64,000 nucleotides of DNA from an uncultured candidatus Porisulfidus sp. (GCA_965116025.1 OZ220480.1:960001-1024000), one strand, 5' to 3'; positions 3,315-54,616 are shown, counted from the stretch's first letter. Notes: generated by a model not told the origin, from the letters alone. Made by a program: numbers and translations.

Positions 3315-4142
3315 TCAAGCGCTCTCATTGACATCGACGAACGTCTGCCGAAGTCGTCGGAAGGACTCGGCGTAGGTCTCTCCTATGCACACCGCGGGGA
3401 CGATCTCAATTCCGATAGATTCGTCCATGAGGCGTTGCAGTCGCTCGTCGATATCGGCGTGGCTTTCTCCAGTGTTTTGGTGAATCTTCTCGACAATCTC
3501 CTGGCGAGTCAGTACTCCATCGCTTTTCGGATTTCGCGCTTCGTCAAGCGCATGCAATCGTCCAGTCTGGATGATCTCACGCAAGCCAAGAATAGCCATA
3601 AGCCGGTGCTGGCCATCAAGCGCATAGAATCCGGTCTCGCTATCGTCCATATCCCAGTATGTTCCAGCGGGATTCAACCCTTGAAGAGTAAGACTATCAT
3701 TCATGGCGCGCGCGTCGGTGCCCCACCGTTCATGCCGCTCATCGTGGACCCAGCACTGATACCCGGTGAGGAGGAGTGGAGGAAATTTGTGGTGCTTGCG
3801 CACTGCCAGATACGTGGCCATTTCAATCTGGCGGCGCCAGTCAGGTTGCCGGTGCCGTATCTGCTCCATGATTTCGGGATCCGCTTGGATTCGCCTGGAA
3901 CCTTCCCCTCCTTCTTGAAATATTGGCAGATTGGCCGCGAATCGGACCTTGGTGGCGACCCACTTGAGAGTGGTGGACGTAAGGTACGAAGAAACCCCAC
4001 CCATGCGGACTTGATGCGCCAAGTGATGGTTCTTCTGGACTCGGAGCTTCTCCAGCAGATGACTGAGAACTACTTGCTCTCTTCGCTGATCCTTCGTGGA
4101 ATCCAGAATCTCGGCCATGTCCTGTTGCGGGGTTGCGCTCAT
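3315..4142 (-). CDS. DGQHR-domain (DndB-like) protein, possibly C-terminally truncated
   Basis: QHRQPDW-like RQPDW, FPPLL, ALDGQHRL, ends RQTFVDVNESA*. Confidence 0.75.
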   Translation of the reverse strand: MSATPQQDMAEILDSTKDQRREQVVLSHLLEKLRVQKNHHLAHQVRMGGVSSYLTSTTLKWVATKVRFAANLPIFQEGGEGSRRIQADPEIMEQIRHRQPDWRRQIEMATYLAVRKHHKFPPLLLTGYQCWVHDERHERWGTDARAMNDSLTLQGLNPAGTYWDMDDSETGFYALDGQHRLMAILGLREIIQTGRLHALDEARNPKSDGVLTRQEIVEKIHQNTGESHADIDERLQRLMDESIGIEIVPAVCIGETYAESFRRLRQTFVDVNESA

Positions 4143-4192
4143 TTTCGATTTCCCTTGATAATCGCGCCAAGTCTTCTTCGAGTCACACTGTC

Positions 4193-5361
4193 TAGTGTAG
4201 TGTACGTCAATAATATATATTTATGCTACACTTCGCCGGATTGCCGCGATCAGGAGGAGAACCGCATGCGCCGCGCCATTCCCATCGAGCTCAGCGCCGA
4301 GGAGCTCGCCGCCCTGAGCGAGACGGCTCGCTCGAGCCTCTCCAGCGTTCGCGACGCGTTTCGCGCTCGCGTCGTGCTGCTCGCCGCCGAGGGCCGGCGC
4401 ACCATCGACATCGCCGATCAACTGGACGCGAGCGCCAGCACGGTGGCGAAGTGGAGGAACCGCTTCGCCGAGCGGCGCCTGGCCGGGCTGTCCGACCGTC
4501 CTGGGCGAGGGCGCAAGCGGACCTACGGCGACGACGTGGTCAAGCGCATCGTCGAGGACACCCTGCATGACGCTCCCGAACAGGCCACGCATTGGTCGAC
4601 CCGTGGCATGGCTCAGCACGCCGGGGTGAGCCACGCCACCGTTCACAAGATCTGGCGCGCGCACGGGCTGAAGCCGCATCTGGTCCAAACGTTCAAGCTG
4701 TCCACCGACGAGCGTTTCGTCGAGAAGCTGCGCGACGTCGTCGGGCTGTATCTGGACCCGCCTGAGCATGCCTTGGTCCTGTGCGTCGACGAGAATTCGC
4801 AGATCCAGGCGCTGGATCGCGCCCAGCCCGGATTGCCGATGAAGAAGGGGCGCGCCGGAACCATGACGCACGACTACAAGCGGCACGGGACCACCACCTT
4901 GTTCGCGGCCCTGAACGCCGTGGACGGCACGGTGTTCGGGCGTTGCTACCAGCGCCATCGGCATGTCGAGTTCCTGCGCTTCCTGCGGGAGATCGACGGG
5001 CACGTCCCGAAGGAGCTGGAGGTCCACCTGATCGTGGACAACTACGCCACCCACAAGCATCGCAAGGTGAGGGAATGGTTCGCGCGGCGGCCGCGTTTCC
5101 ACGTCCACTTCACGCCGACCTCGGCGTCCTGGCTGAACCTGGTGGAGCGGTTCTTCCGGGAGCTGACGGAGCGGCGCGTGCGGCGGGGGGTGTTCCGAAG
5201 CGTGCGGGAGCTGACCCGGGCGATCCACGATTTTCTGGATCATCACAACGCCGACCCGAAGCCGTTCTCGTGGAGCAAGACGCCCGAGCAGATCCTGGAC
5301 AAGCTGGCGCCCCTCCGCGCCAAGCAAGTATAAATATCTCTAATTAGATTACACTACACTA
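4193..5361 (+). mobile_element. IS630-family insertion sequence
   Basis: Terminal IRs CTAGTGTAGTGTA (4192-4204) / TACACTACACTAG (5350-5362), imperfectly extending to ~36 bp; TA at both ends in CTAG context. Confidence 0.92.
4266..5333 (+). CDS. IS630-family transposase
   Basis: RBS AGGAGG; HTH region, HWSTRGMA, VDENSQIQALDR, DNYATHK, SWLNLVERFF. Confidence 0.93.
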   Translation: MRRAIPIELSAEELAALSETARSSLSSVRDAFRARVVLLAAEGRRTIDIADQLDASASTVAKWRNRFAERRLAGLSDRPGRGRKRTYGDDVVKRIVEDTLHDAPEQATHWSTRGMAQHAGVSHATVHKIWRAHGLKPHLVQTFKLSTDERFVEKLRDVVGLYLDPPEHALVLCVDENSQIQALDRAQPGLPMKKGRAGTMTHDYKRHGTTTLFAALNAVDGTVFGRCYQRHRHVEFLRFLREIDGHVPKELEVHLIVDNYATHKHRKVREWFARRPRFHVHFTPTSASWLNLVERFFRELTERRVRRGVFRSVRELTRAIHDFLDHHNADPKPFSWSKTPEQILDKLAPLRAKQV

Positions 5362-5667
5362 GCATGACCGATGTCTCCGGCCATCATAGTACATCACGCT
5401 CACGCTCGTCTTTTGAATCTTGGAGTGCTGAATGCGACAGAGATTGAAGCCGACGAAAGGCTGATGGCAAAGTCGAACGATAGGAGAGTATCGTCGTGTG
5501 CTGTATGATGCGGGGAAGCTCGTTTTACGGTTGTGGGTTCATCATTTGCTAAAGTACGGAAGATGGTTCAAACTGGTCCGGGATGGATTGAAATCAATTA
5601 AGTTTACTTCCTACCCAGAGTGGTTACTATGATCACCAAAATTCGCACTTTATGACAATTAATGGGC

Positions 5668-6477
5668 ATGAATAAAAACGCAATCCGCCTTCCTCGAGGA
5701 CGAACGCAACTTGTCCAGGTGCTGTCCATGGCCGGTGACGTGATTCGCGTCGGCGATGTGGTGATTGCCCTTCAACTTGATCGCGCCGCTGCCGCCCAGC
5801 GTTTATCTCGCTGGGCTGGACAGGGATGGCTGAGACGGGTGGGCCATGGGGCTTATGTCGCCGCTTCCATTGACACCATGGGGTCGAATCGTGTCCTTGA
5901 TGACCCGTGGGTGCTCGTTCCCGCACTTTTCGCGCCAGCCTACATCGGAGGACGTACAGCCGCTGAGCATTGGAACTTGACCGAACAGATATTCAAGGAT
6001 ATTTTCGTGGTGACCGCGCAGACTGTACGCCAGAAACGTCAAGAGCGGCACGGCACGATCTTTTCGCTGAAACACATCGATGAACGGAAGATTTTTGGCA
6101 CGAAGAACATTTGGTGTCATAAAACGAGAGTGCCCGTTTCCGACGTGCACCGTACGATCATCGACATGCTCGATAACCCGGCAACCAATGGCGGCATCCA
6201 GCATGTGGTTGACTGCTTCGCGGCCTATCTGCGACGTGATGATCGGAATGACGATAAGATCGTCGAATATGCGGTGGGATTTGGCAACGGAGCCGTCTTT
6301 AAACGCCTAGGGTTTCTGGCCGAACGTTTTTCTGGCGGTGTCGAACTGGCCCGTCTTTGTGAGCGACATCTGAGCGGTGGACACGCGAAGCTCGACCCTG
6401 TCCAGGATGGACCACTCATCGTGCCGAAATGGCGGTTGCGCGTACCGGAATGCTGGGCTCGCGCGGAAATGATATGA
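5668..6477 (+). CDS. Type IV TA AbiEi-family antitoxin / transcriptional regulator
   Basis: N-terminal wHTH (GWLRRVGHGAY), YIGGRTAAEHWNLTEQ, RTIIDMLDNP, AVFKRLGFLAE. Confidence 0.75.
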   Translation: MNKNAIRLPRGRTQLVQVLSMAGDVIRVGDVVIALQLDRAAAAQRLSRWAGQGWLRRVGHGAYVAASIDTMGSNRVLDDPWVLVPALFAPAYIGGRTAAEHWNLTEQIFKDIFVVTAQTVRQKRQERHGTIFSLKHIDERKIFGTKNIWCHKTRVPVSDVHRTIIDMLDNPATNGGIQHVVDCFAAYLRRDDRNDDKIVEYAVGFGNGAVFKRLGFLAERFSGGVELARLCERHLSGGHAKLDPVQDGPLIVPKWRLRVPECWARAEMI

Positions 6478-6565
6478 ACGCTATGGAGCTGTTTCTAGAA
6501 AAATTGTTTCCGGGCGTGGTTTGGACGGTGGGCGCTCGCGATAGATTGACAGCGCGGGTGTAGTT

Positions 6566-7438
6566 GTGGCGAGTCTGTCATTGGCGTTGGCGGTCAAGGA
6601 AGAGCCGCCGCAATTCGTCCTCAAGCGTCAGGACAATCTTGAATTTATGTCGGAACTTCCGGATGGAATATTCAAACTGATCGTCACGTCTCCACCTTAT
6701 AATCTTGGCAAGCCCTACGAGAAAAAACGCCTTTCCACGGATGAATATGTCGAAAAACAGTCAGCGGTGATACGGGAATGTATTCGCCTGCTCCATGATC
6801 AGGGTTCTATTTGCTGGCAGGTGGGGAACCACGTAGAAAATGGGGAAATCGTGCCATTAGACGCTTTGCTCTATCAGGTTTTCGCTTCCCATGGATTGAG
6901 GCTTCGGAACCGTATCGTTTGGCATTTCGGGCATGGCCTCCACTGCACTAGGCGCCTTTCCGGGCGATATGAGACCATAAACTGGTGGACCAAGAGCGAC
7001 GATTACACATGGAATCTTGATCCTATTCGAGTTCCATCCAAATACCCGGGGAAGCGTTATTTCAAGGGGCCGAACATTGGTAAGTTGTCCTGCAACCCAA
7101 AGGGGAAAAACCCGAGTGATGTTTGGGAGTTTCCAAACGTGAAAAGCAATCATCCAGAAAAAACCATTCATCCATGTCAATATCCTGTCGAACTTGTGGA
7201 ACGTCTCGTTCTCTCGATGACGAACGAGGGTGATGCCGTTCTAGACCCCTATGTCGGGGTAGGTTCTTCGGCGGTCGCGGCTCTCAAGCACGGCCGCGTG
7301 GTTTATGGATGCGATGTGGTGGAAGATTACATCCGCATAGCGAACCGGAGGATTGAGGAATTATGCGCCGGCACGCTCAAGACCCGTCCCATGGGAAAGC
7401 CGATCTATGATCCATTAAAGCCGAAAGGAGGACATTGA
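6566..7438 (+). CDS. beta-class amino DNA methyltransferase (probably N4-cytosine)
   Basis: TSPPY catalytic motif N-terminal; HPCQYP; DPYVGVGSS SAM-binding motif C-terminal. Confidence 0.9.
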   Translation: MASLSLALAVKEEPPQFVLKRQDNLEFMSELPDGIFKLIVTSPPYNLGKPYEKKRLSTDEYVEKQSAVIRECIRLLHDQGSICWQVGNHVENGEIVPLDALLYQVFASHGLRLRNRIVWHFGHGLHCTRRLSGRYETINWWTKSDDYTWNLDPIRVPSKYPGKRYFKGPNIGKLSCNPKGKNPSDVWEFPNVKSNHPEKTIHPCQYPVELVERLVLSMTNEGDAVLDPYVGVGSSAVAALKHGRVVYGCDVVEDYIRIANRRIEELCAGTLKTRPMGKPIYDPLKPKGGH

Positions 7439-8049
7439 TGGAGATTGGGGCGACGTACTCGCACCTCAATGGAATGGAGTACCTGATGGTCCATCATGCC
7501 GAATTATGGGATGAGGTCTTGGAGGTGATAGCTGGCGTGGATGCTCATGCCTGCAAAAACAAGGTTTCCAAGGAGCGAACCATGAAGGGGAAAATGCTGT
7601 ATTCCCCGGGAGACATGAATAGGGCATTTCGCTTCAGATTTGGTAATGCTGGATGGAGAGAGCAACGCGATACGTTCTGGGTCACGAAGGACGAGAAAGT
7701 CGCGCGGAAGATATCCGGCCAATCACCGGAAGTGCAAAAAGCAACCATAGAAAAAGCTGGGTATGTCCCGATAATGTCATACAACCAGACAGATTTCGTG
7801 AAAGGTCGCGTCGCTGTGGAAGTGCAGTTCGGCAAATACGCTTTTGTGGCGCACGACTTGTTCGTCAAGCACATGAGTTTTTATGTCTCTGGCGTTATTG
7901 ATGTTGGAATCGAGGTATTGCCGATGAAGTCGATGGAACGTGAAATGTCCTCAGGTGTCCCTTATTACGAAAGGGATTTGATGAATGTCGTTCGCCAAGG
8001 GCGCGGGGTTCCGGCTGTTCCTTTGGTTCTCATTGGCGTTACGCCATAG
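7438..8049 (+). CDS. BglII/BstYI-family type II restriction endonuclease
   Basis: NQTDFVKGRVAVEVQFGKY (D..ExQ active site); overlaps MTase stop. Confidence 0.85.
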   Translation: MEIGATYSHLNGMEYLMVHHAELWDEVLEVIAGVDAHACKNKVSKERTMKGKMLYSPGDMNRAFRFRFGNAGWREQRDTFWVTKDEKVARKISGQSPEVQKATIEKAGYVPIMSYNQTDFVKGRVAVEVQFGKYAFVAHDLFVKHMSFYVSGVIDVGIEVLPMKSMEREMSSGVPYYERDLMNVVRQGRGVPAVPLVLIGVTP

Positions 8050-8119
8050 CCAAGTATCTGACGTGGCGGCGGGTATCTTTTCAAGGCGTAGGATCGGTTG
8101 CGGGCTCCTGGATGTGTTT

Positions 8120-8128
8120 TGTTATAAT
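8120..8128 (+). promoter_or_regulatory. extended -10 promoter (TGnTATAAT) upstream of dndC
   Basis: TGTTATAAT ending 43 nt before ATG 8172. Confidence 0.5.
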
Positions 8129-8171
8129 CGTTCCATTAGAAGAGCTTCCATCTAGAAAATCCCACAAGTAA

Positions 8172-9420
8172 ATGGCCGTAGCTATTCAGGGAAGTCCCCT
8201 ACCGTCTGCCACCAAAAGTGTTTCTTTTCTGAAACACTCAGAAGGACTCGACCGAATTAAAGGGGGGGGGGGGGGGGGGGGGGCTAACCTCTAACGTTCC
8301 CTCCGACAATACTTTCGAGGGAATCAGACGAGAGATTTACGAAGAGTACACAGCGCTTCACGACAAGCCTTGGATCATCGGGTACTCTGGAGGCAAAGAC
8401 AGTACGCTTGTCGCGCACCTTGTAATTGAAACACTAATTTCCCTGCCGCGCAGTGAGAGGCGTAGGACTGTCCATGTAGTAGCAAACGATACGCTTGTCG
8501 AGAGTCCATTGGTAATGGAACATGTTCGAATCGGACTCTTGGAAATCGAAAAGGCGGCAAGGGCATTTGATTTACCTGTTGTTGTCGCCACCACAGCACC
8601 AGAACTGAATCAGACTTTTTGGGTCAACCTCATTGGTCGAGGCTACGCTTCGCCCAACCGCAATTTTCGCTGGTGTACTGATCGGATGAAGATCCAGCCA
8701 ACCAGTAAATACATTCGAAAACAGGCGGGAATCTCTGGCGAGGTGGTGCTTCTCCTTGGTGTTCGCCGGAGGGAAAGTGTCGCACGGGCTGGTATGGCGG
8801 CCAGGTATGACAATGGCGCACGATTGAACAGGCACAACGACCTTCAGGGCTGTTGGGTGTTCAGGCCAATACTTGAGTTAGGCGAGGACGATGTCTGGGG
8901 TTTCCTCGCGGAGCACAAACCACCTTGGGGGTGTAGCCATGATCGTTTGATCCGACTGTATCGAGATGCAGGTGGAGGAGAGTGTCCGGTCGTAACATCC
9001 GCGGCGGATGCGCCTTCATGTGGGACAACATCTTCACGTTTTGGATGCTGGACCTGCACCGTGGTCGAGAAGGACAAGAGTTTGGCAGGCTTTGTCGCTT
9101 CTGGATTCGACCACTTCACGCCGTTGCTTGAGTTTCGAGACTGGCTCGTAGCAATTCGCAACGATCCCAAGCGTAGGCTCGCCCGTCGCCGTAATGGTCG
9201 TGTGACGATTACCAAGAAAGGCGTGTTCGTACCCGGTCCGTTCAATTTAGCCACCCGGAAAGAAATTCTTGATCGACTACTGATGTTGCAAGAGTGCTCA
9301 GGGATGGCTTTGATACAACAGTCCGAGGTAGAGCGTATAAGGGAATTGTGGGCGGAAGACGCGGTGTCCAGTGTTGAGCGAAATGCTGAAGAGAGGCGCA
9401 CCCATATTGGGAGGGCATGA
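8172..9420 (+). CDS. dndC: DNA phosphorothioation sulfurtransferase DndC, frameshifted at poly-G tract
   Basis: KPWIIGYSGGKDST and NDTLVESP lie upstream of the ORF-track start 8509; RWCTDRMKI, GECP, SRFGCWTCTVV; ATG 8172 is in frame only with G21/G24. Confidence 0.85.
8262..8283 (+). repeat. poly-G tract (G22) in dndC 5' end
   Basis: Counted directly. Confidence 0.9.
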
Positions 9421-9626
9421 TGTCGAATGGTAATGTCGCGCTATTTCATAGTAAAGCAGGACGAAACCTTGTCCTTTCCAAATGCAGGGCAGAGGGACTA
9501 GATCCGAAGGTGCTTGAACGATTAGTTGCTGTAGAGATAAAGCAACAAGGAAAGCTAAAAAAGCGCGGAATAACGAGTGCTTTTGATGAAATTTTTGACA
9601 GCATAGAAGTCGAAGAGGGTGAATGA
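9417..9626 (+). CDS. small protein of the dnd operon (69 aa)
   Basis: Overlaps dndC stop and dndD start (ATGA-type coupling). Confidence 0.7.
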   Translation: MMSNGNVALFHSKAGRNLVLSKCRAEGLDPKVLERLVAVEIKQQGKLKKRGITSAFDEIFDSIEVEEGE

Positions 9627-11704
9627 TGCACCTCCGTTCAGTTGAACTAGTCAATTGGCGTTCGTATCGTCACACGCACTTTAATTTTCCAATATCGGAT
9701 GGCAATCGGAATGTCATACTTATAAAAGCACCAAACGAATATGGGAAAACTTCTTTTTTCGAAGCTATAACGCTTGGATTGTTTGGGCGTGAGGGATTGC
9801 GTTTCGTACCTAGGGCCCAACCTCGGGTTGTCACCAATGACGGCATGGAAAATTTGATCAAGATCAGCTATAGCCAATTTCTCGGTAAAGTGCTTCATAG
9901 ACGAGCTACCGAAAACGGTCCGGCGAAGTGTTCAGTGTCAATCAAAGCTGATGATGACACTGGAGTACCTATCGAACTTACGCGGATTTGGCATTTTCAG
10001 CGAAGTGGTCTCCACAAGCCAGCCGACGATGAAATTAATATTCTGTATGGCCATAAGAGGGAGCCCGTTCAACCTCCACCTGGTATTGAAGATAGTGGTC
10101 TATGGTTCCGTGACTGGATTGCGCTGCACTTTTTGCCACCGAGTTTGGCCGTGTTCTTTCTTTTTGATGGCGAACAGGTGCAACAGTACGCGAGACAAGA
10201 AATGAGCCAACAGGTGCGATTAGGGATCGAAAATCTGCTGGGTCTTAATATCTTGAACGAGCTCCGGGATTCGCTCGCAAATTATGCTCAACGAAAACGG
10301 AAATCCGTACCACTACCGGCCAACAGTGTGATTAAGGAAGTAGAGGATGATATCGCTACCATTTCGGAAGATATTGAGCGCAATCAAAAAACATTTGACA
10401 AAGCAGTAGGAATTTTGGGCGAACTTGAATTAGAGAGAGATCAGTTATCCCAAGTCATTGGTGGGCGTGATGGGACAGTAGCTGAGGTCGGAAACCTCAT
10501 GAAAGAAGAAGCCCGATATCGGGAAGAGGCGCGGAGCGCGATGAAGGCACTACTGGAATTAATCCAGGAAGACGTTGCTTTAGCTGTTGCGGGTGCTAAT
10601 CTACGGGAAAGCACGCGTGCCACCCTCATGGCAGAAGCAAAGCGTGAGCGATGGGAGTCTGGCCGTAACGAAGGCACCCAGAATCTTGACCGCTTCGCTC
10701 TTGAACTTAGAAAGTGCGTTGATGCTTTTGATCCGCCACTTAATGAAAAATATTGTGTAGCTGTGGTTGAAGCAGGCAGACAGGCATGGAATTCACTATG
10801 GAATCCAGCACCCGAAGGGTGTGCTGAGGTTTATCGCCATCCGTCCATCAAAGGCACGATGCGTGACCGTGCGATTGAGTTGCTACTATCCTTAGATAGC
10901 CATACCAAAGGAGAGCTGAAAGACCAAGTGGATAGATTCAATGTTGCCGTCGAACAGGCCGAAGCCAAAAAGCGAGAATGGCAAGAAACAGAGGCAACGG
11001 CTCAGGAAATCAGCCCTCATTTAGATCGACTTAAGAATCTATCCGAAAATATCTCGACTCATAAGGGTCAGAGGGATGAGGCTGAACGGGCGATTAGAAG
11101 CAAAAAATCAGATCTCTCTGATAAACAAGCAGAATTTGGCCGCTATGTGTCGGGCAAAGTAAAAAGTGGTCCCGCATTGAGGCATGCTACCTTTGCTGAT
11201 CGTTACGCTACCCTAATCCCCAATCTCGTAGAGGATGCTTGGCCAAATGAAGTTAACGAGGTCGCTGTGGAAATGACTAAAGCATGGAAGAAAATGGCCA
11301 ATCACCCGGAACGTGTGGACCGGATTGAGATCACTCCAGACTGCAGAGTTAGGATGCTGGCTGCAGGGGGCGGGGATTTACACGATATCGACATGTCAGC
11401 GGGTGCCAGCCAAGTGTTTACGCAGGCCTTAATTTTGGCTATAACCAAAGTCAGCGGACGGGCCTTTCCGTTTATAGTCGATACACCATTGGCTCGCCTG
11501 GGCAGGGTTCCGCGAATTGGGGTCCTGAAAACGTTTACAGACCGAGCAGGCCAAGTGATTCTCCTTTCTACTGACCAAGAAGTTGTGGATGACAAGCTTG
11601 ATGCAATTAGAGAGCGTTTGGTGGCTGCCTTCGAATTAACAGTCAATCACGACAAAGGTGTTTCAACAACAAGTGTCCTCGAACTCGATATAGGGAAACT
11701 CTAA
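9623..11704 (+). CDS. dndD: DNA sulfur modification protein DndD (SMC/Rad50-like ATPase)
   Basis: APNEYGKTS Walker A, FFLFDGEQV, long coiled coil, MSAG signature, IVDTPLARL, LLSTDQE. Confidence 0.88.
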   Translation: MMHLRSVELVNWRSYRHTHFNFPISDGNRNVILIKAPNEYGKTSFFEAITLGLFGREGLRFVPRAQPRVVTNDGMENLIKISYSQFLGKVLHRRATENGPAKCSVSIKADDDTGVPIELTRIWHFQRSGLHKPADDEINILYGHKREPVQPPPGIEDSGLWFRDWIALHFLPPSLAVFFLFDGEQVQQYARQEMSQQVRLGIENLLGLNILNELRDSLANYAQRKRKSVPLPANSVIKEVEDDIATISEDIERNQKTFDKAVGILGELELERDQLSQVIGGRDGTVAEVGNLMKEEARYREEARSAMKALLELIQEDVALAVAGANLRESTRATLMAEAKRERWESGRNEGTQNLDRFALELRKCVDAFDPPLNEKYCVAVVEAGRQAWNSLWNPAPEGCAEVYRHPSIKGTMRDRAIELLLSLDSHTKGELKDQVDRFNVAVEQAEAKKREWQETEATAQEISPHLDRLKNLSENISTHKGQRDEAERAIRSKKSDLSDKQAEFGRYVSGKVKSGPALRHATFADRYATLIPNLVEDAWPNEVNEVAVEMTKAWKKMANHPERVDRIEITPDCRVRMLAAGGGDLHDIDMSAGASQVFTQALILAITKVSGRAFPFIVDTPLARLGRVPRIGVLKTFTDRAGQVILLSTDQEVVDDKLDAIRERLVAAFELTVNHDKGVSTTSVLELDIGKL

Positions 11705-11706
11705 AA

Positions 11707-13245
11707 ATGAATGCTGGATTAGAAGATCTTATGACTTCTACATTCCGGACAACCCGGACTGCAGACAAGATTTGTGCTGATCTCAACGAAAAATTGGGTT
11801 GGAAGAGTCGGTATGTTGCTGCTCGCTTGGCTCTAGGAAGATCGCTATCCCACATTGAGCAACCGCCTGAACTTACATCTAAAGAAACCGAAGAAATGGC
11901 GACCCCCATGCGTGGCATGCAACTATTTGGCGAAGGAGCACAGGCCGCAGTTTGGCTAGCCATCATCACGGAACATAGCAGTGAAACAGAGATGACCAAA
12001 AGGAGCCTGCAGGGGTTGGTTTCACGCCACTGGCATAGGGGTGCATTTCTTCTCGGCCAAGACTGGAATGATTGTGGTTGCGCCATGGATAAATTCGTTG
12101 CGCGCTTAGCTGAACTTGCCGATTTTTCTGGAGATGGTGGTGGGAGTGATACTATTTCGGCCCCCAGTGCTCCCACGTATGCGGAAGAAATTAGATTACC
12201 GGTAGGAGAGATTGCTCACGACCTCCAATCAGGCGAGCAAGTAACATTCTCATTGAATGGAGAAGGCGGTAGCCCACATATGGCCATCATGGGCGGGGTT
12301 GGATCTGGTAAGACCAGGACCGCCGTCCACATGCTTCGCATGTTGCGCCAATACTGCGAGCTCCCGCTTCTCGCATTCGATTTCAAGGGCGACCTCGCCG
12401 ACCGCCTTGTCGCTAGTTTTGGTGCCACCGTGGTTTCCCCGCCAGAAGAAGCCATCCCACTGGATGTTTTGTATATCACATCTCGTGATGATATATTGAT
12501 AAAAACCTCTGCCGGTCGCATTCGGGACTCGATAGCCAAAGTGAAACGGGGCAGAGTTGGTGGTATCCAGCTAGAAGCGTTACGCGAAGCGGTTGAATCA
12601 GCTCTGCGCCATGGGCCAGCATCTACGCCAGCGACCCTTCCCGACGTTGCCTCAGCACTGAAGTCCGGGTATGAAGACCGCAATCGGCCTCCAGACGAAT
12701 TGACGGTGACATTGAACGAGCTAACACAGTTCGTGCTTTTCGAACCAAAGTTTTCACCAGCCGAATTCTTTTCAAAAAGTTGGATTATTCAGCTTCCACA
12801 AGGTGGCTCTGAAGAAATGAGGCGGCTGATTATCAATCTGACACTTGACGCATTAGACCGTTGGATCAACTCTCAACCTGATGCGCCAACGGATGATCGA
12901 GGCGTTCGCGCTCTCCGCCATTTGACCATGCTTGATGAAGCTCATGTGATCTTGTCAACGAAGCTTCCCGCTCTTGGAAATCTCGTTCGCATGAGCCGGT
13001 CCAAGGGTGGTTCTATTATGTTGATATCACAATCGCCTGATGATTTTGAGCGTGCCGAAGATGGTTATTTGGATAATATGGGTATGACCTTGGCCTTTAA
13101 TACTCAAGCTAAGCCTGGGCCAATAAAACGCATTTTCGTTGACAATACCTGCCGCTTAACGAGTTTGAAGGCTGGTGAAGCAATGTGCCGGCTTCGTTTG
13201 GAGGCCCGAACACAGAAGATTCTTTGCTGGAAGCCTGAAGATTGA
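11707..13245 (+). CDS. DndE-like N-terminal domain fused to HerA/FtsK-type ATPase
   Basis: N-terminal ARLALGRSL..HWHRG DndE-like segment; HMAIMGGVGSGKT, FDFKGD, LTMLDEAH, RSKG..SQSPDD. Confidence 0.7.
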   Translation: MNAGLEDLMTSTFRTTRTADKICADLNEKLGWKSRYVAARLALGRSLSHIEQPPELTSKETEEMATPMRGMQLFGEGAQAAVWLAIITEHSSETEMTKRSLQGLVSRHWHRGAFLLGQDWNDCGCAMDKFVARLAELADFSGDGGGSDTISAPSAPTYAEEIRLPVGEIAHDLQSGEQVTFSLNGEGGSPHMAIMGGVGSGKTRTAVHMLRMLRQYCELPLLAFDFKGDLADRLVASFGATVVSPPEEAIPLDVLYITSRDDILIKTSAGRIRDSIAKVKRGRVGGIQLEALREAVESALRHGPASTPATLPDVASALKSGYEDRNRPPDELTVTLNELTQFVLFEPKFSPAEFFSKSWIIQLPQGGSEEMRRLIINLTLDALDRWINSQPDAPTDDRGVRALRHLTMLDEAHVILSTKLPALGNLVRMSRSKGGSIMLISQSPDDFERAEDGYLDNMGMTLAFNTQAKPGPIKRIFVDNTCRLTSLKAGEAMCRLRLEARTQKILCWKPED

Positions 13246-43867: not shown

Positions 43868-46800
43868 ATGAAAGCCAGTCTTTCCGTTTCCAATATCATC
43901 CGCGCCGCGCTTCGCGGGGCTTCGTCGTCTTCCCGCATAGGGGGGGGGGGGGGGGGCATAGCCTCCATTTCCTGACCGTTCTGGCCGGATTCACGGCCAT
44001 TCTCGCGGTTCCGCACTCCGCCGTCGCGGTGAACGAGTGCGGCGCTACCAGCCCGGTCACCTGCGGCGACGCGAGTTACACCTCCACTAGCGACTCCCCG
44101 ATCAAGTATGAGAATCGGACCGGGGGGCTGACCTTGACCGTGAAGCCTTCCGGGGCGGGCACGGTCACCATCACTTCCAAGAAGCTTCCCGCGGACGATA
44201 CCGAGGAGTTCCCGGGGATCCACCTGGATGGGGAAGGCACCCTGAAAGTCGTTCTGGATGGCACCGTGAAAGTCGTGAACGGAGTGCCCCGAACGACGGT
44301 GGAGGCCACGTACGACGGAGAGAAGCAATCGTTCATTCGCCCGGAGCACAAGCGTGGTTCGCAAAACGACGGGGTGTACGTGGCGTACGACAAGGATGAC
44401 GACGCGGGGACAACGAAGGGCATGGTGGAGGTGATGGTGGGGAAGGGCGCGATGATCGGGAGCGCGACGGTGCCGGCGGGACGGTACGGGGTTCACGCCG
44501 CGTTCGTGGACGCGGACGGCGGCGGTTATCCGGCCGGGAAGCTCAAGGTGACGAACTCGGGGGAGATCTACGGTCATTTCGCGGGGATTTACGCGAAGCA
44601 CGACGGGGCGGGGGACATCGAGATCGAGACGTCGGAGGGGAGCGTGACGTCGATGGGGATCCGGGCGATCTCGAACAAGGCGAACCAAGCGGGTCGGGGC
44701 GGGAACGTCACGATTCGCCATCATGGCGCGATCATGGTGAAGAATCCGCCCCGGTACGCGGACGAGATCATGACGACGGGCGCGCTGACGACGGCCACGC
44801 CGGTGGAGATGGACAAAGTCAGCTTTGCCGACCGGCACCGAGCCGGGATCTACGTGGAGCATTGGGAAAAGGATGCGCCCACGGGCGCGAAGCCGAGCAG
44901 CTCGATCCTAGTCCAGTCGAGCGGTGATATCACCGCTTATGAGAACGGTAGCAAGGGCAGAAGCGCCATTTACGTCATCACGCGGGGAGCCTCCGGTTCC
45001 GTCGTGCCGGTCACGGTCGACGTGACGGGGGGCGTTCTGAGGGGGAGTGAATCGTTCGGGATTTACGTCTATCACGGGAACCACAAAGGCGGTTTGATCA
45101 AGGTGGACCTGGCGGGCGAGATCGCCCGGACGGGGAGCGGGATGAGGAACGGGAAGGATGGGATCGGGCTTTACCGGGGCTCCACGGTCGATCACGACGT
45201 CTCGGTTAATCGGGACATTGAGGTGACGCTGAGGTCCGGCGCGCGGATCGGAATGGAGGGAGACGAGCCGACCGTGGTCAGGGATGGCGTGAACGTTCGC
45301 CAGCAAGCGGACGGTGGGACGATCCGGGTGACCATCTCCGAGGGGGCGAGGATCGGGACTACGGGGACTCCGGTTGGCAGGCACGGCGTGTTCACTGATA
45401 CGGTCAACGCTGATGACGAGACTGACATCATGGTCACCAACGAAGGCTTCATCCACGCGAAGGGCTCGGGGATGGCCGCTTTGAATCTCGGTTGGGGCGA
45501 CGTGGTCGCGAAGCACTTGAAAGGCGAGATCGTCGTGGTCGACGCGCGCGATATCTTGGAATCCTTGATATCGGAGGATCACAAGCCGCAACTGGCGGAC
45601 CTGAAAGGCAGAACCGCCGGCGTTCTCGCCGTTCATGGGGGTGAGCGACCCCAAGCGGCTTCCGACGAGACGGCGGCCGACTATCGAGACCCTTCCACCT
45701 ACGAGGCCAAGATCGGGAAGATCGAGATCACGTCGAAAGCGGACATCACGTCGAAGGGCGACGGCATTCTCGCCTATGTGAAGGACTTGGACGACACGGC
45801 GGGGATACAGGGCATTGAGACGATCGTCCCGATCATGATCGATGTTTCAGGCGGAACGATCACGGCGGATGGGTATGGCGTGTACGCGGAGACGGCCACC
45901 ACCTACGAGGACGAGGACGCGCCGAAAGCCGGGAAGATTGAGGTCACGGTGGGAGAGATGGCGACGATCCGGGCCAAGAAGGATGGCGTTCACGTCAAGG
46001 GCAAGCGAACCTTCGCGTCCGACCACGCCCGGGCGGGTGAACACGACCAGACGGTCACGATCAACGGCAAGGTGATGGGCGGCGGTGGAGACCACGCCGG
46101 CGTTCGGATGGTGAACGGCGGGACGCTGGTGGTTGGGCCGAAGGCGAAGGTGGAGGCGGTGTCCGGGACCGCGGTGAGGTCGGACGGGGGGCTGACCATC
46201 ACCATGAAGAAGGACGCGGTCGGACGCATCGGCTACGTCAAGGGGAAGATGCTCAACAGTGGAACGACGACCTTCGATGGGGTGAAGGTGGGCGGGGAGT
46301 ACGCGCTCAGCCCGGGCCTCGAGACGCGCGGCGTGTACGACATTTCCAGAGTCACCCTGAAGACGATCGAGGGCGGGCACCAGTTCGAGGAGTCGGGTCG
46401 GGCGTATCACGCCCGGGCTCGGGTGTACGAGGCGTTGCCGTCGGTGCTGCTGGAGATGAGCGCGCCGGGCGGTCGTCAGGCGCGCTTGTCGGCGACGCGG
46501 GACGGCGCGGGCGTTTGGGCGCGGGTCATGGCGAGCGACGGCGAGCGCGAGGCGGATATGTCCACGACGGCGATGGACACGGCGGGGCATGATCTGTCTT
46601 GGGACTTCGAGCGCTGGGGCGTGGAGACGGGCATCGTCGTCCCCACGGACTTGCCGGGCGTGACGTTGGGCGCGAGCGCGCACTACCGTGACGGCGAGGC
46701 GGACGTCAAGCGTGGCGGGAAGATTGAGGTCTCGGGCGTGGGCGTGGGAGCTTCGGCGACCTGGCGGGGTGAGGACGGCTGGTACGCGGACGGGGAGCTC

Positions 46801-47310
46801 TCGTACACGCGTTTCGAGGACATTGATTTGAGTTCGGAGGCGCGTGGGATGGTGGCGTCCGGTCTGGACGGAGAGGGTCACGCGATCGGCGTGGAGGTCG
46901 GCAGGCGCATGGAGATGGACGGCTTCGCGCTGGTTCCGCGCGGGGGATTGACGTGGACTTGGGCGGACATTGACGGCTTCGACGACGTTTCGGGTGTCGA
47001 TGGGAGCGGTCAGGTGTCGTTCCGCTCCGAGGACAGCGTGCGCGCGCGGATCGGGGCGTTATTGGAGAACGGCCAGACGTACGCGTCATTGGACGTGGAG
47101 CGTGAGTTCTCGGAGAGTCGGGAGGCGATGGCGTCGGGAGCGCATCTGCGCTCGGAAGCGGAGTCCACGTGGGCGCGGATTGGCGTCGGGGGCGTGATGG
47201 TCTTGGATGAGAAGGGAGAGTCGACGCTCTCGGGGGACGCTCACTACGCGGCGTCGGATGGCGACAATCATGATTACGGCGCGAGCGTCCTGCTGAAGGT
47301 TCGCTTCTGA
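43868..47310 (+). CDS. autotransporter/adhesin paralog 1, frameshifted at poly-G
   Basis: RBS GAGGTG + ATG 43868; signal peptide ending AVA needs G15/G18; beta-rich passenger; C-terminal barrel (GVWAR..LVPRGGL..KVRF). Confidence 0.8.
43940..43956 (+). repeat. poly-G tract (G17)
   Basis: Counted directly. Confidence 0.9.
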
Positions 47311-51056: not shown

Positions 51057-54000
51057 ATGAAAGCGAGTCTTTCCGTTTCCAATATCGTCCGCGCCGCGCT
51101 TCGCGGGGCTCCGTCGTCTTCCCGCATAGGGGGGGGGGGGGGGGGGGGCATAGCCTCCGTTTCCTGACCGTTCTGGCCGGATTCACGGCCTTTCTCGCGG
51201 TTCCGCACTCCGCCGTCGCGGTGAACGAGTGCGGCGCTACCAGCCCGGTCACCTGCGGCGACGCGAGTTACGCCTCCACCAGCGATTCCCCGATCAAGTA
51301 TCAGGATAAGACCGGGGGTCTGACCTTGACCGTGAAGCCTTCCGGGGCGGGCACGGTCACCATCACCGCCGAGGCGCTTCCCACGAGCGCGAGCGACGCG
51401 TTCCCGGGGATCCATCTGAACGGACACGGAACCCTGAAAGTCCTTTTGGATGGCGCCGTGAAAGTCGTGAACGGGGCGACCCGGACGACGGTGGACGCGA
51501 CGCTCGCGGGCGAGACGGGGACTTTCAAGTTCATCCACCCGGATCACAAGCTGGGCTCGCGGAACGACGGGGTGTACGTGGCGTACGACAAGGATGACGA
51601 CGCGGGGACAACGACGGGCATGGTGGAGGTGATGGTGGGGAAGGACGCCGTGATCGGGAGCGAGACGGCGCCGGCGGGACGGTACGGGGTTCACGCCGCG
51701 TTCGTGGACGGGGACAGCGCCAACGCGAACTATCCAGCCGGGAAGATCAAGGTGACGAACGCGGGCATGGTGCATGGCCACTACGCGGGGATTTACGCGA
51801 AGCACGACGGGAAGGGCGACATCGAGATCGAGACGTTGGAGGGGAGCGTGACGTCGATGGGGATTCGGGCGATCTCGAATAAAGCTGACAAGGCGGATCG
51901 GGGCGGGAATATCGCCATTCGCCATCATGGCCGGATCGTGGTCAAGGATCCGGCTCGGTACGCGGACACGCTGACGATGGCGAACGTGGCCACGCCGCTG
52001 GAGATGGATAAAGTCAGCTTCTCCGACCGGCACAGAGGAGGGATCTACGTGGAGCATTGGGAAAAGCGGACGCCGACGGGCGCGAAGCCCAGCAGCTCGA
52101 TCCTGGTCGAGTCGAGCGGCGACATCGTCGCCCATCCGATCCACGGCAAAGAAGGCGACAACAGAGCGAGAAGAAGCGCCATTTACGTCATCACGCGGGG
52201 GAACGGTGATTCCGTCGTTCCGGTCACGGTCGACGTGACGGGGGGCACCCTGACGGCGGACGACCCGAGTGGAAGAAATGGAGGGAATGGGATTTACATC
52301 TATTACTCTCAGCACAAAGGCGGTTTGATCAAGGTGGATCTCGCCGGCGAGATTTCACGGACGGGAGACATAAGAGATGGAATCTTTATTGAGAGACAAT
52401 ATGACGACGATAGCGACGATTCCAGTGATGTCAGCAGGGACATAGAGGTGACGCTGAAATCCGGGGCGCGGATCGGCATGGAGGGAGACGAGCCTACCGT
52501 GGGTCGGCGTGGCGTGTCGGTGACCCAGTCGACCAGCGGGGGAACGGTTCGGGTGGCTGTGGAGTCCGGGGCGCGGATCGGAACCGCGGGGACTCCGGTC
52601 GGCGAGAACGGGGTGGTCGCCGAGATCAGCAACGCCGATGACGAGAACGACATCATGGTCACCAATGAGGGCCACATCCACGCGAAGGGCTCGGGGGTGG
52701 TCGCCCTGCATCGCGGCTGGGGTGCCGTGGTCGTGCAGCATCTGGCGGGGGAGATCGTCGCGGGCGACCAGCCTAACGCCTTCTCCTCGCTCATAGAGGA
52801 TCACCAGACGGAGTTGGCGGACCTGAAGTCCCGGACCGCTGGCGTTTCCGCCATTCATGGGGGTTCGGAGCCCAAGCCGCTTCCCGGCAAGAATATCATC
52901 ATTAGCGATCCCTCCACCTACGAGTCCGATATCGGGGAGATCAAGATCACGTCGAAGGCGGACGTCACGTCGAAGGGCGACGGCATTCTCGCTTACGTGA
53001 AAGACCTGGACGATGTGGGGGCCAGGAGCCCCAAGGTGAGAGTGCCGATCACGATCGACGTGGCCGGCGGGACGATCACGGCGGACGGCCACGGCGTCTA
53101 CGCGGAGACGGCCACCATCTACCAGGGTACCTACGCGAATACGGAGATCACCTACGACGATGCCACCAAGGCCGGGAAGATCGAGGTCACGGTGGGGGAG
53201 ATGGCGACGATCCGGGCCAAGAAGGACGGGGTGCATGTCAAGGGGATGCGGACCTTCGCGTCCGACCACGCCCGGAAAGGGCAATATGACCAGACGGTCA
53301 CGATCAACGGCAAGGTGATGGGCGGTGGTGGAGACCACGCCGGCGTTCGGATGGTGAACGGCGGGACGCTGGTGATCGGGCCGAAGGCGGAGATCGGCGC
53401 GACGTCGGGGACCGCGGTGAGCGCGGACAAGGCGCTGCATGTCACCCTGAAGGAGAACGCGCATGGGCAGATCGCGTTCGTCATGGGGAAATTCCTGAAT
53501 AGTGGAAAGGACGCGCCGAACGTCTTCCAGCGGGAGTTGATGGCCGGCGCGAAGAAGATGATCGCCGTGGGGGACGCGGTGAAGGCGACGTCGGGTAAGA
53601 CGGGGACGCATGGGGTGTATGACGCGGTGTTCGAGCGGATGGTCACGCTGAAGTCGATCGCGGGCGGGCACCAGTTCCAGGTGGACTCGGAGAAGGAGAT
53701 CAGCCGGACGTATCACGCCCGGGCTCGGGTGTACGAGGCGCTGCCGTCGGTGCTGCTGGAGATGAGCGCTCCGGGCGGCCGTCAGGCGCGTTTGTCGGCG
53801 ACGCGAGACGGCGGGGGCGCGTGGGCGCGGGTGTTGGCGAGCGACGGCGAGCGGGAGGTGGAGACATCCACGACCGAGATGGACGATGCGGGTCGCGCGC
53901 TGTCTTGGGACTTCGAGCGCTGGGGCGTGGAGACGGGCTTCGTCGTTCCTACGGACGCGCCGGGGCTGATGCTGGGCGTGAGCGCGCATTACCGGGACGG

Positions 54001-54616
54001 CGAGGCGGACGTCGCGCGTGGCGGGAAGATCGAGGTCTCGGGCGTTGGCGTGGGCGCTTCGGCGACCTGGCGGGGGGAGGACGGCTGGTACGCGGACGGG
54101 GAGCTCTCGTACACGCGGTTCGAGGATGTCGACTTGAGCTCGGAGACTCGGGGGATGGTGGCGTCCGGTCTGGACGGAGACGGCCACGCGATCAGCGTGG
54201 AGGTCGGCAGGCGCATGGATATGGACGGCTTCGCGCTGGTTCCGCGCGGGGGATTGACGTGGACCTGGGTGGACGTCGACGGCTTTGACGACGTGTCGGG
54301 CGTTATTGGAAGCGGTCGAGCGTCGTTCCGCTCGGAGGACAGCGTGCGGGCGCGGGTTGGAGCGCTGCTGGAGAATGGCCAGACGTACGCCTCATTGGAC
54401 GTGGAGCGCGAGTTCTCGGAGAGCCGGGAGGTCATGGCGTCGGGGTCGCGCTTGCGCTCGGAGGCGGAGTCCACGTGGGCGCGAGTTGGTGTCGGGGGCG
54501 TGATGGTCTTGGATGATAAAGGGGAGTCGACGCTATCGGGGGACGCTCACTACGCGGCGTCGGACGGCGACAATCATGATTACGGCGCGAGCGTCCTGCT
54601 GAAGGTTCGCTTCTGA
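51057..54616 (+). CDS. autotransporter/adhesin paralog 2, frameshifted at poly-G
   Basis: Same RBS and leader as paralog 1; ATG 51057 needs G18/G21; identical C-terminus YGASVLLKVRF. Confidence 0.8.
51129..51148 (+). repeat. poly-G tract (G20)
   Basis: Counted directly. Confidence 0.9.

Follow-up and report, generated by a model that had tools for sequence, protein, structure and literature searches.

Can a run of guanines decide whether a bacterium modifies the backbone of its own DNA? The question is raised by a dnd locus in a 64,000-nt stretch (hereafter the window) of the genome of an uncultured candidatus Porisulfidus sp. (GCA_965116025.1, OZ220480.1:960001-1024000), a sponge-associated bacterium whose small genome is assembled as one contig of 2,018,984 bp with a GC content of 62.7%. 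In this locus the gene for the sulfurtransferase DndC carries, 30 codons into its leader, 22 consecutive Gs (G22, positions 8262-8283 of the window, plus strand). An initial annotation had proposed that this tract gates dndC between ON and OFF, and the gating is supported in silico by the logic of the reading frames, by an otherwise intact DndC and by 44 other tracts in contingency and defence genes of the same genome. We consider it probable that the locus is a slipped-strand contingency switch on phosphorothioate (PT) modification by the Dnd module, assembled here in the OFF state.

The tract behaves on paper as a frameshift element, as it amounts to seven glycine codons plus one base. From the start codon ATG 8172, the frame runs through a variable N-terminal leader of 30 codons (8172-8261, plus strand), seven glycines and three further codons before it closes at TAA 8292-8294, so that the immediate stop claimed for G22 is indeed present and the OFF product is 40 aa long. 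The DndC frame itself is open from 8233 and, as had been claimed and as our own frame reading reproduced, it offers no ATG, GTG or TTG before TTG 8509, which lies 3' of the codons for the SGGKDST motif (8386-8406). When the dndC region was rebuilt by script with 18 to 27 Gs and the products were compared, ATG 8172 was the sole start that traversed the tract at any of these lengths. Runs of 18, 21, 24 and 27 Gs gave proteins of 414-417 aa (415 aa at G21, 416 aa at G24), every other length in the range gave 37-41 aa, and the products of G22 and G23 end after 38-40 codons. The proposal that ATG 8172 joins DndC only when the number of Gs is a multiple of three is thereby upheld, and the length of the repeat sets the reading frame in the manner of a simple-sequence-repeat (SSR) contingency locus. 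Chance did not produce a G run of 12 or more in any of 100 shuffles of the sequence.

The signals that would bring a polymerase and a ribosome to this start were also surveyed. The extended -10 element named in the initial annotation can be read directly at 8120-8128 (plus strand), where the candidate TGTTATAAT lies 44 nt 5' of the start codon, but a scan for consensus promoters upstream of dndC gave no sigma-70 -35/-10 pair. The scan for terminators returned none on the plus strand between the upstream restriction-modification (R-M) genes and dndC, and transcription by read-through from those genes is possible. Direct reading of the bases 5' of ATG 8172 found no Shine-Dalgarno-like sequence, in keeping with the lack of a clear ribosome-binding site already noted there.

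The frame that follows the tract (8284-9420, plus strand; 378 codons and a stop) encodes a PAPS-reductase-type sulfurtransferase, and its assignment to DndC holds: it scores 367.5 bits against TIGR03183 (DndC), above the NCBIfam equivalog cut-off of 290.4, matches the PADLOC DndC model at 2.6e-117 and PF01507 at 1.2e-8, and has in its translation the SGGKDST P-loop of the PAPS-reductase/ATP-pyrophosphatase fold. Its closest homologues, mostly 413-419 aa long, are 83% identical to it. The four cysteines of the C-terminal ECP...SCG...GCWTC stretch, which we take to be ligands of an Fe-S cluster, are kept in the window protein and in all 23 homologues compared. This is the single dndC of the genome.

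The part of the gene that the tract occupies is one in which homologues differ freely. Their N-terminal extension comprises 35-45 residues, is variable in sequence and is missing in some (379-381 aa), and a short poly-glycine insert in so variable and dispensable a leader should be harmless. Directly 3' of the tract the protein reads TSNVP, a motif also present in the leader of one homologue (P0014), and coding homology therefore extends to the 3' edge of the tract. In a locus with the same gene order and an 80% identical DndC (L012), the ORF starts 132 nt before L012 position 6001, which corresponds to window position 8305; measured to the same aligned point, the window leader and tract together span 133 nt at G22, and so would equal the 132 nt of L012 at G21. 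The leader DNA aligned with L011-L013 has no sequence conservation upstream of the core, and this equality of length is the informative part of the comparison. A chimeric join at the poly-G was considered and rejected, given that homology to DndC leaders reaches the tract, that the L012 leader matches in length, and that a 21.7-kb metagenome contig, described below, spans the island.

To place dndC in its genetic context, we annotated the neighbouring genes, all of which lie on the plus strand. Downstream follow a small protein of 69 aa without a family match (9417-9626), whose start overlaps the dndC stop and whose stop overlaps the start of the next gene; a DndD-related ABC/SMC-like ATPase of 693 aa (9623-11704); and a 512-aa protein in which a DndE domain (Pfam, residues 13-119, 28.5 bits against a cut-off of 25) is fused to a HerA/FtsK-type ATPase (11707-13245; TrwB_AAD_bind and DUF87/HerA). 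DndD-like and DndE-domain genes are thus found directly downstream of dndC, as befits its operon partners, and successive genes of the four overlap (ATGA at 9417-9420 and again at 9623-9626) or abut, which fits the coupling of dndD and dndE to dndC that had been asserted. The ATPase matches PADLOC PbeC at 5.2e-186 and DndD at 1.3e-62, yet it reaches only 204.5 bits against TIGR03185 (DndD), short of the cut-off of 245.85 for a canonical DndD, and no CxC motif is visible in its translation; for these two reasons we call it simply a DndD-related ABC ATPase, despite PbeC being its best model. The gene order is common to L012 and L061, both L032 and L061 have a comparable small ORF at the position of the 69-aa gene, and the ATPase and the DndE fusion agree in length with their L012 counterparts (693 vs 691 aa and 512 vs 511 aa). 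Membership in these families suggests that the DndC, DndD-like and DndE-HerA proteins form a variant that synthesizes PT.

Several partners known from dnd systems were looked for. The island contains no dndA, and six Aminotran_5 genes, of the cysteine-desulfurase fold, are located elsewhere in the genome. A genome search for DndH gave no match, and neither did the searches for DndF and DndG, which were silent in every control genome too; within the island (5662-13245), PbeA (the HKD-helicase), SspE and SBD-HNH are absent. As no DndFGH partner was found, a cell in which modification is OFF should not be killed by its own system.

Upstream of dndC, the island holds an AbiEi-like regulator (5662-6477; PADLOC 1e-122) and, each identified by family match, an N4/N6 DNA methylase (6566-7438) and a BglII-family endonuclease (7435-8049), which together make a complete BglII-family Type II R-M pair. 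The AbiEi-like gene stands at the head of this R-M/dnd island with no AbiEii toxin gene adjoining it, and its product might act as the regulator of the island in place of DndB. The GC content is about 0.50 over 6-12 kb compared with 0.63 for the genome, with the low-GC island spanning 5.6-13.2 kb, and this composition, together with an adjoining transposase gene, indicates that the island was acquired. The latter gene is a 632-aa ORF (3435-5333) with HTH and DDE_3 transposase domains just 5' of the low-GC island, whose arrival it may have aided.

We next consider the tract against the background of the whole genome. Its G/C runs fall into two classes: 45 measure 15-39 nt, and the others are at most 8 nt long, nine of them exactly 8 nt, which leaves the interval of 9-14 nt empty. 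About 24 of the long runs belong to paralogous autotransporter genes encoding some 1,150 aa, where they sit exactly 24 codons after the ATG between near-identical flanks, a family assignment that was tested on the two copies in the window. Six lie in or beside large surface proteins rich in fibronectin-III (fn3) domains, two in genes for family-2 (GT2) glycosyltransferases, and two in genes for an ABC exporter and an HlyD-like protein. Besides dndC, seven tracts fall in defence or modification genes, namely a Type ISP enzyme, a Type IIG enzyme, a Type III Mod, a Type I methylase, a GmrSD-like protein, an HmaC/DUF499 ATPase and a PDC-M33A-like ATPase; these runs measure 15-29 nt (for example at genome positions 11481, 154914, 605518, 666483, 772596, 1038751 and 1683699), and because the largest open segments touching each tract were scored, their position within the gene is approximate. 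The three remaining tracts comprise a G16 beside a DUF120-family ORF and two without a family match. The same type of repeat as in dndC is therefore found in 44 other tracts of this genome, typical contingency genes among them, and its defence repertoire looks largely phase-variable.

The two autotransporter genes of the window (43868-47307 and 51057-54613; beta-domain matches of 1e-24 and 1e-27) illustrate the most frequent arrangement. Their tracts, G17 at 43940-43956 and G20 at 51129-51148, lie 24 codons past the ATG within the signal-peptide region, and either gene would come into frame with one more base. Unlike dndC, each has a strong GAGGTGA ribosome site. Among the 23 tracts outside the autotransporter pattern (read as poly-G), two of which evidently belong to members of that family, an A precedes the run in 16, and the sequence that follows favors CAT (C in 15, A in 13 and T in 11 of 23), in a genome of 63% GC.

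Long G/C runs are a trait of the lineage: runs of at least 15 nt were found in 11 of the 15 same-genus genomes and in 10 of the 19 from a sister family, and the other families searched had them in none of their genomes (0 of 17 and 0 of 8). The genome encodes both MutS and MutL, and mismatch repair is therefore not obviously relaxed. The closest relatives of dndC itself are free of such repeats, since glycine or proline runs of four or more are missing from all 120 closest DndC proteins, and the DndC-like genes of four same-genus genomes, at most 60% identical, have no run of 8 or more nearby. The tract therefore arose on the acquired island, in a lineage prone to such repeats.

An acquired gene in such a lineage might simply be decaying, with dndC inactivated at a mutable run, the OFF state fixed and the module heading for loss, in which case the tract would serve no adaptive switching. 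That the island is foreign and adjoins a transposase would suit this history, and so would an assembled length that is out of frame, the same length being implied by a metagenome contig. We nonetheless find the account improbable. A second lesion is absent: dndC is otherwise intact, with all 378 codons of its core stop-free and 83% identity to homologues, and the three downstream genes are full length. Moreover, a run of 22 nt is inherently unstable, which makes a "fixed" state unlikely, and the jump in run length from at most 8 to at least 15 nt across the genome, with the long runs sitting in typical contingency genes, argues for tracts that are maintained.

Long homopolymers are error-prone on all sequencing platforms, as is generally known, and the count of 22 could be off by one. 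It could accordingly be proposed that the true tract is G21 or G24, that dndC is expressed with a poly-glycine linker, and that the OFF state is a sequencing or assembly error. Three metagenome runs (X1-X3) of one study contain the region as assembled Logan contigs, which were compared with the window outside positions 8251-8291; no RNA run contains it. In X1, a 21.7-kb contig covers 5500-13500 with zero differences and exactly equal length, which implies G22. This contig, from a second assembler and possibly from the same reads, speaks against a miscall, although X1 may be the source of the genome assembly itself and the agreement is then not independent. In X2, the contigs on either side terminate at the tract. 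X3 contains a strain about 95% identical over 6008-8250 (the R-M genes), and its contig also stops at the tract. These breaks in X2 and X3 lend the miscall some support; they are expected from heterogeneity in tract length and equally from difficulty in sequencing. Beyond 8327, nothing in X3 aligned at 90% likeness, an absence that we do not count as evidence, and the dndC of that strain may be much more divergent or missing. A scan of JGI metagenome contigs with an exact-flank pattern gave 0 matches.

The genome as a whole offers a second measure of assembly error. Judged by the longest frame across each of the 45 tracts, 12 are in frame, 18 need the loss of one base and 15 the gain of one; this near-even split, as expected from stochastic switching or from noise, reveals no systematic assembly bias toward one base too many or too few. 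We regard a miscalled length as unlikely on these grounds. Even an in-frame G21 would stay hypermutable, and a miscall would therefore alter the current state of the locus and leave the mechanism as proposed.

To assess whether repeats recur at this position in dndC genes elsewhere, we examined 167 other dndC loci (7 relatives, 80 from species genomes and 80 from metagenomes), 159 of which have the GGKDS motif on the plus strand. The window tract ends 105 nt before this motif. A G/C run of at least 8 nt ending 100-109 nt before GGKDS is present in 5 of the 159 loci, where 0.19 would be expected from the 15 such runs in the remaining 1.12 Mb of the same loci; the interval was chosen post hoc, after the hits had been seen, and the five loci represent only two lineages. 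These runs sit at the same leader/core junction as the tract of the window.

Two of the five are Moraxella-type dndC genes (segment L061:4924-4995, with a C10 run, and segment L160:1478-1560, with a C8 run), in which the run lies 3-4 codons past the ATG. Both have a second in-frame ATG after the run and still before the P-loop, and the run therefore need not abolish DndC there. Over 1.9 Mb, the Moraxella MAG contains no more than three G/C runs that reach 10 nt. The other three are of Acetobacteraceae type, come from MAG or metagenome contigs and encode poly-proline (poly-C): L033 (C12, 318-329), from a MAG of low coverage whose contig ends show poly-C at hundreds of positions; L138 (C10, 588-597), with an apparent indel later in the gene; and L120 (C24, 98-121), beside junk at a contig end. 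We counted L033 and L120 and gave them no weight. At the same junction, a cultured Elioraea isolate carries a C7TC4 sequence that is short, interrupted and in frame (L030:5960-5970). Relative to the nearest start, the assembled length is out of frame in the window, L061, L160 and L033, which makes four of the six loci where the junction carries a run; L138 has an alternative upstream start in frame, and in L120, whose upstream sequence is the contig-end junk, the assembled length leaves no start that traverses the run.

Runs were also seen about 26 codons into dndD, as G15 in L032 (7406-7420), G10 in L038 (7416-7425) and G9 in L178 (1852-1860). Those of L032 and L038 are at a scaffold gap, the L032 run directly against it, and the dndD runs may mark another site in PT genes at which repeats recur, or be artefacts of assembly.

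The proportion of junction runs that are out of frame bears on a further alternative, in which the tract works as a rheostat. A homopolymer longer than the RNA:DNA hybrid permits transcriptional slippage, a phenomenon best documented for A/T runs. Slippage of RNA polymerase at the G run, or a G-quadruplex in the non-template strand, would yield mixed or reduced mRNA and hence a low level of DndC whatever the length of the DNA tract. Four out-of-frame loci among six look as if out-of-frame DNA were tolerated, but for loci that each have a two-in-three chance of being out of frame, even all six being so has a probability of (2/3)^6, about 0.09, and the observed pattern is not far from chance. 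Such an effect would also add to switching at the DNA level and not replace it, and we hold it doubtful as an explanation of the locus.

Under the contingency switch that we favor, slipped-strand mispairing at replication would lengthen or shorten the run by one base at high frequency, and cells would switch heritably and reversibly between PT-modifying and non-modifying states. The OFF state would probably also lower the amounts of the small protein, the DndD-like ATPase and the DndE-HerA/FtsK protein, given that the four genes overlap or abut; this downstream loss could come about through translational uncoupling and possibly through Rho-dependent polarity.

The consequences may reach beyond one operon. 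In a small and probably host-associated genome, much of the defence repertoire would be placed under stochastic control together with the surface proteins, a repertoire that takes in Type I, ISP, IIG and III enzymes, the GmrSD-like protein, the Hma-like ATPase and Dnd, and this bears on the trade-off that a symbiont faces between phage defence on the one side and DNA uptake and the cost of modification on the other. A bolder reading, which we put forward tentatively and think somewhat less probable than its opposite, is that PT is a true phase-variable epigenetic mark and that the junction between the DndC leader and core is a slot for G/C homopolymers that evolved convergently in at least three lineages (this sponge-associated bacterium, the Moraxella type and the Acetobacteraceae type). 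With the repeats near the 5' end of dndD added, bacteria would have in "PT phasevarions" a general means of hedging between modified and unmodified genomes, with dndC forming one arm of eight tract-bearing defence systems that are wholly phase-variable.

In the full-text literature, where subscription journals are thinly covered, our search found no published dnd gene gated by a simple sequence repeat, which agrees with the initial annotation, to which no described example of such a PT switch was known. Where a 2018 review treats the partial and heterogeneous nature of PT, phase variation is raised as an explanation, with the remark that dnd genes and their promoters had shown no simple repeats (PMC6435447). 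The G22-gated dndC supplies a repeat of this type, and makes the idea of PT phase variation directly testable. The module itself has a counterpart in a 2024 comparative study (PMC10853773). There, in section 16 and elsewhere, some Dnd modification systems are described as placing a DndD-related ATPase beside a fusion of DndE with a clade-3 HerA/FtsK domain and as including a small disordered protein. The set and order of genes are the same as in the window, including the position of the small protein between dndC and the ATPase, and our 69-aa protein fits the one described in that section. The word "phase" does not appear in the main text of the study, which thus describes no repeat-based switching.

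Among known phase-variable systems, the Pgl system of Streptomyces coelicolor (BREX type 2) is reportedly switched through a G run in pglX. It shares with the window a G run in a defence modification gene of a high-GC bacterium; Pgl methylates bases, whereas the module described here is predicted to thiolate the backbone. The phasevarions formed by Type III mod genes in Haemophilus influenzae and others are, in the accounts given of them in two sources, likewise based on a repeat within the ORF that shifts the frame of a modification enzyme and so produces ON and OFF epigenomes (PMC6435447; PMC12707154). Those genes direct base methylation and carry a tetranucleotide repeat, while the window has a putative backbone phosphorothioate, a multi-protein Dnd module and a 22-nt homopolymer. 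The poly-G loci of Campylobacter jejuni, Neisseria and Bordetella, in the portrayal of one further source, resemble the present genome in having G/C runs genome-wide in surface-structure, glycosyltransferase and R-M genes (PMC8713573). The tracts of these pathogens are usually 8-13 nt long in genomes of low or intermediate GC, in contrast to 15-39 nt in a symbiont-like genome of 63% GC, with at least eight of them in defence or modification genes. The frameshift switch at a homopolymer is classical; what is new is its probable application to backbone phosphorothioation, and also so large a set of tract-bearing defence genes in a single small genome.
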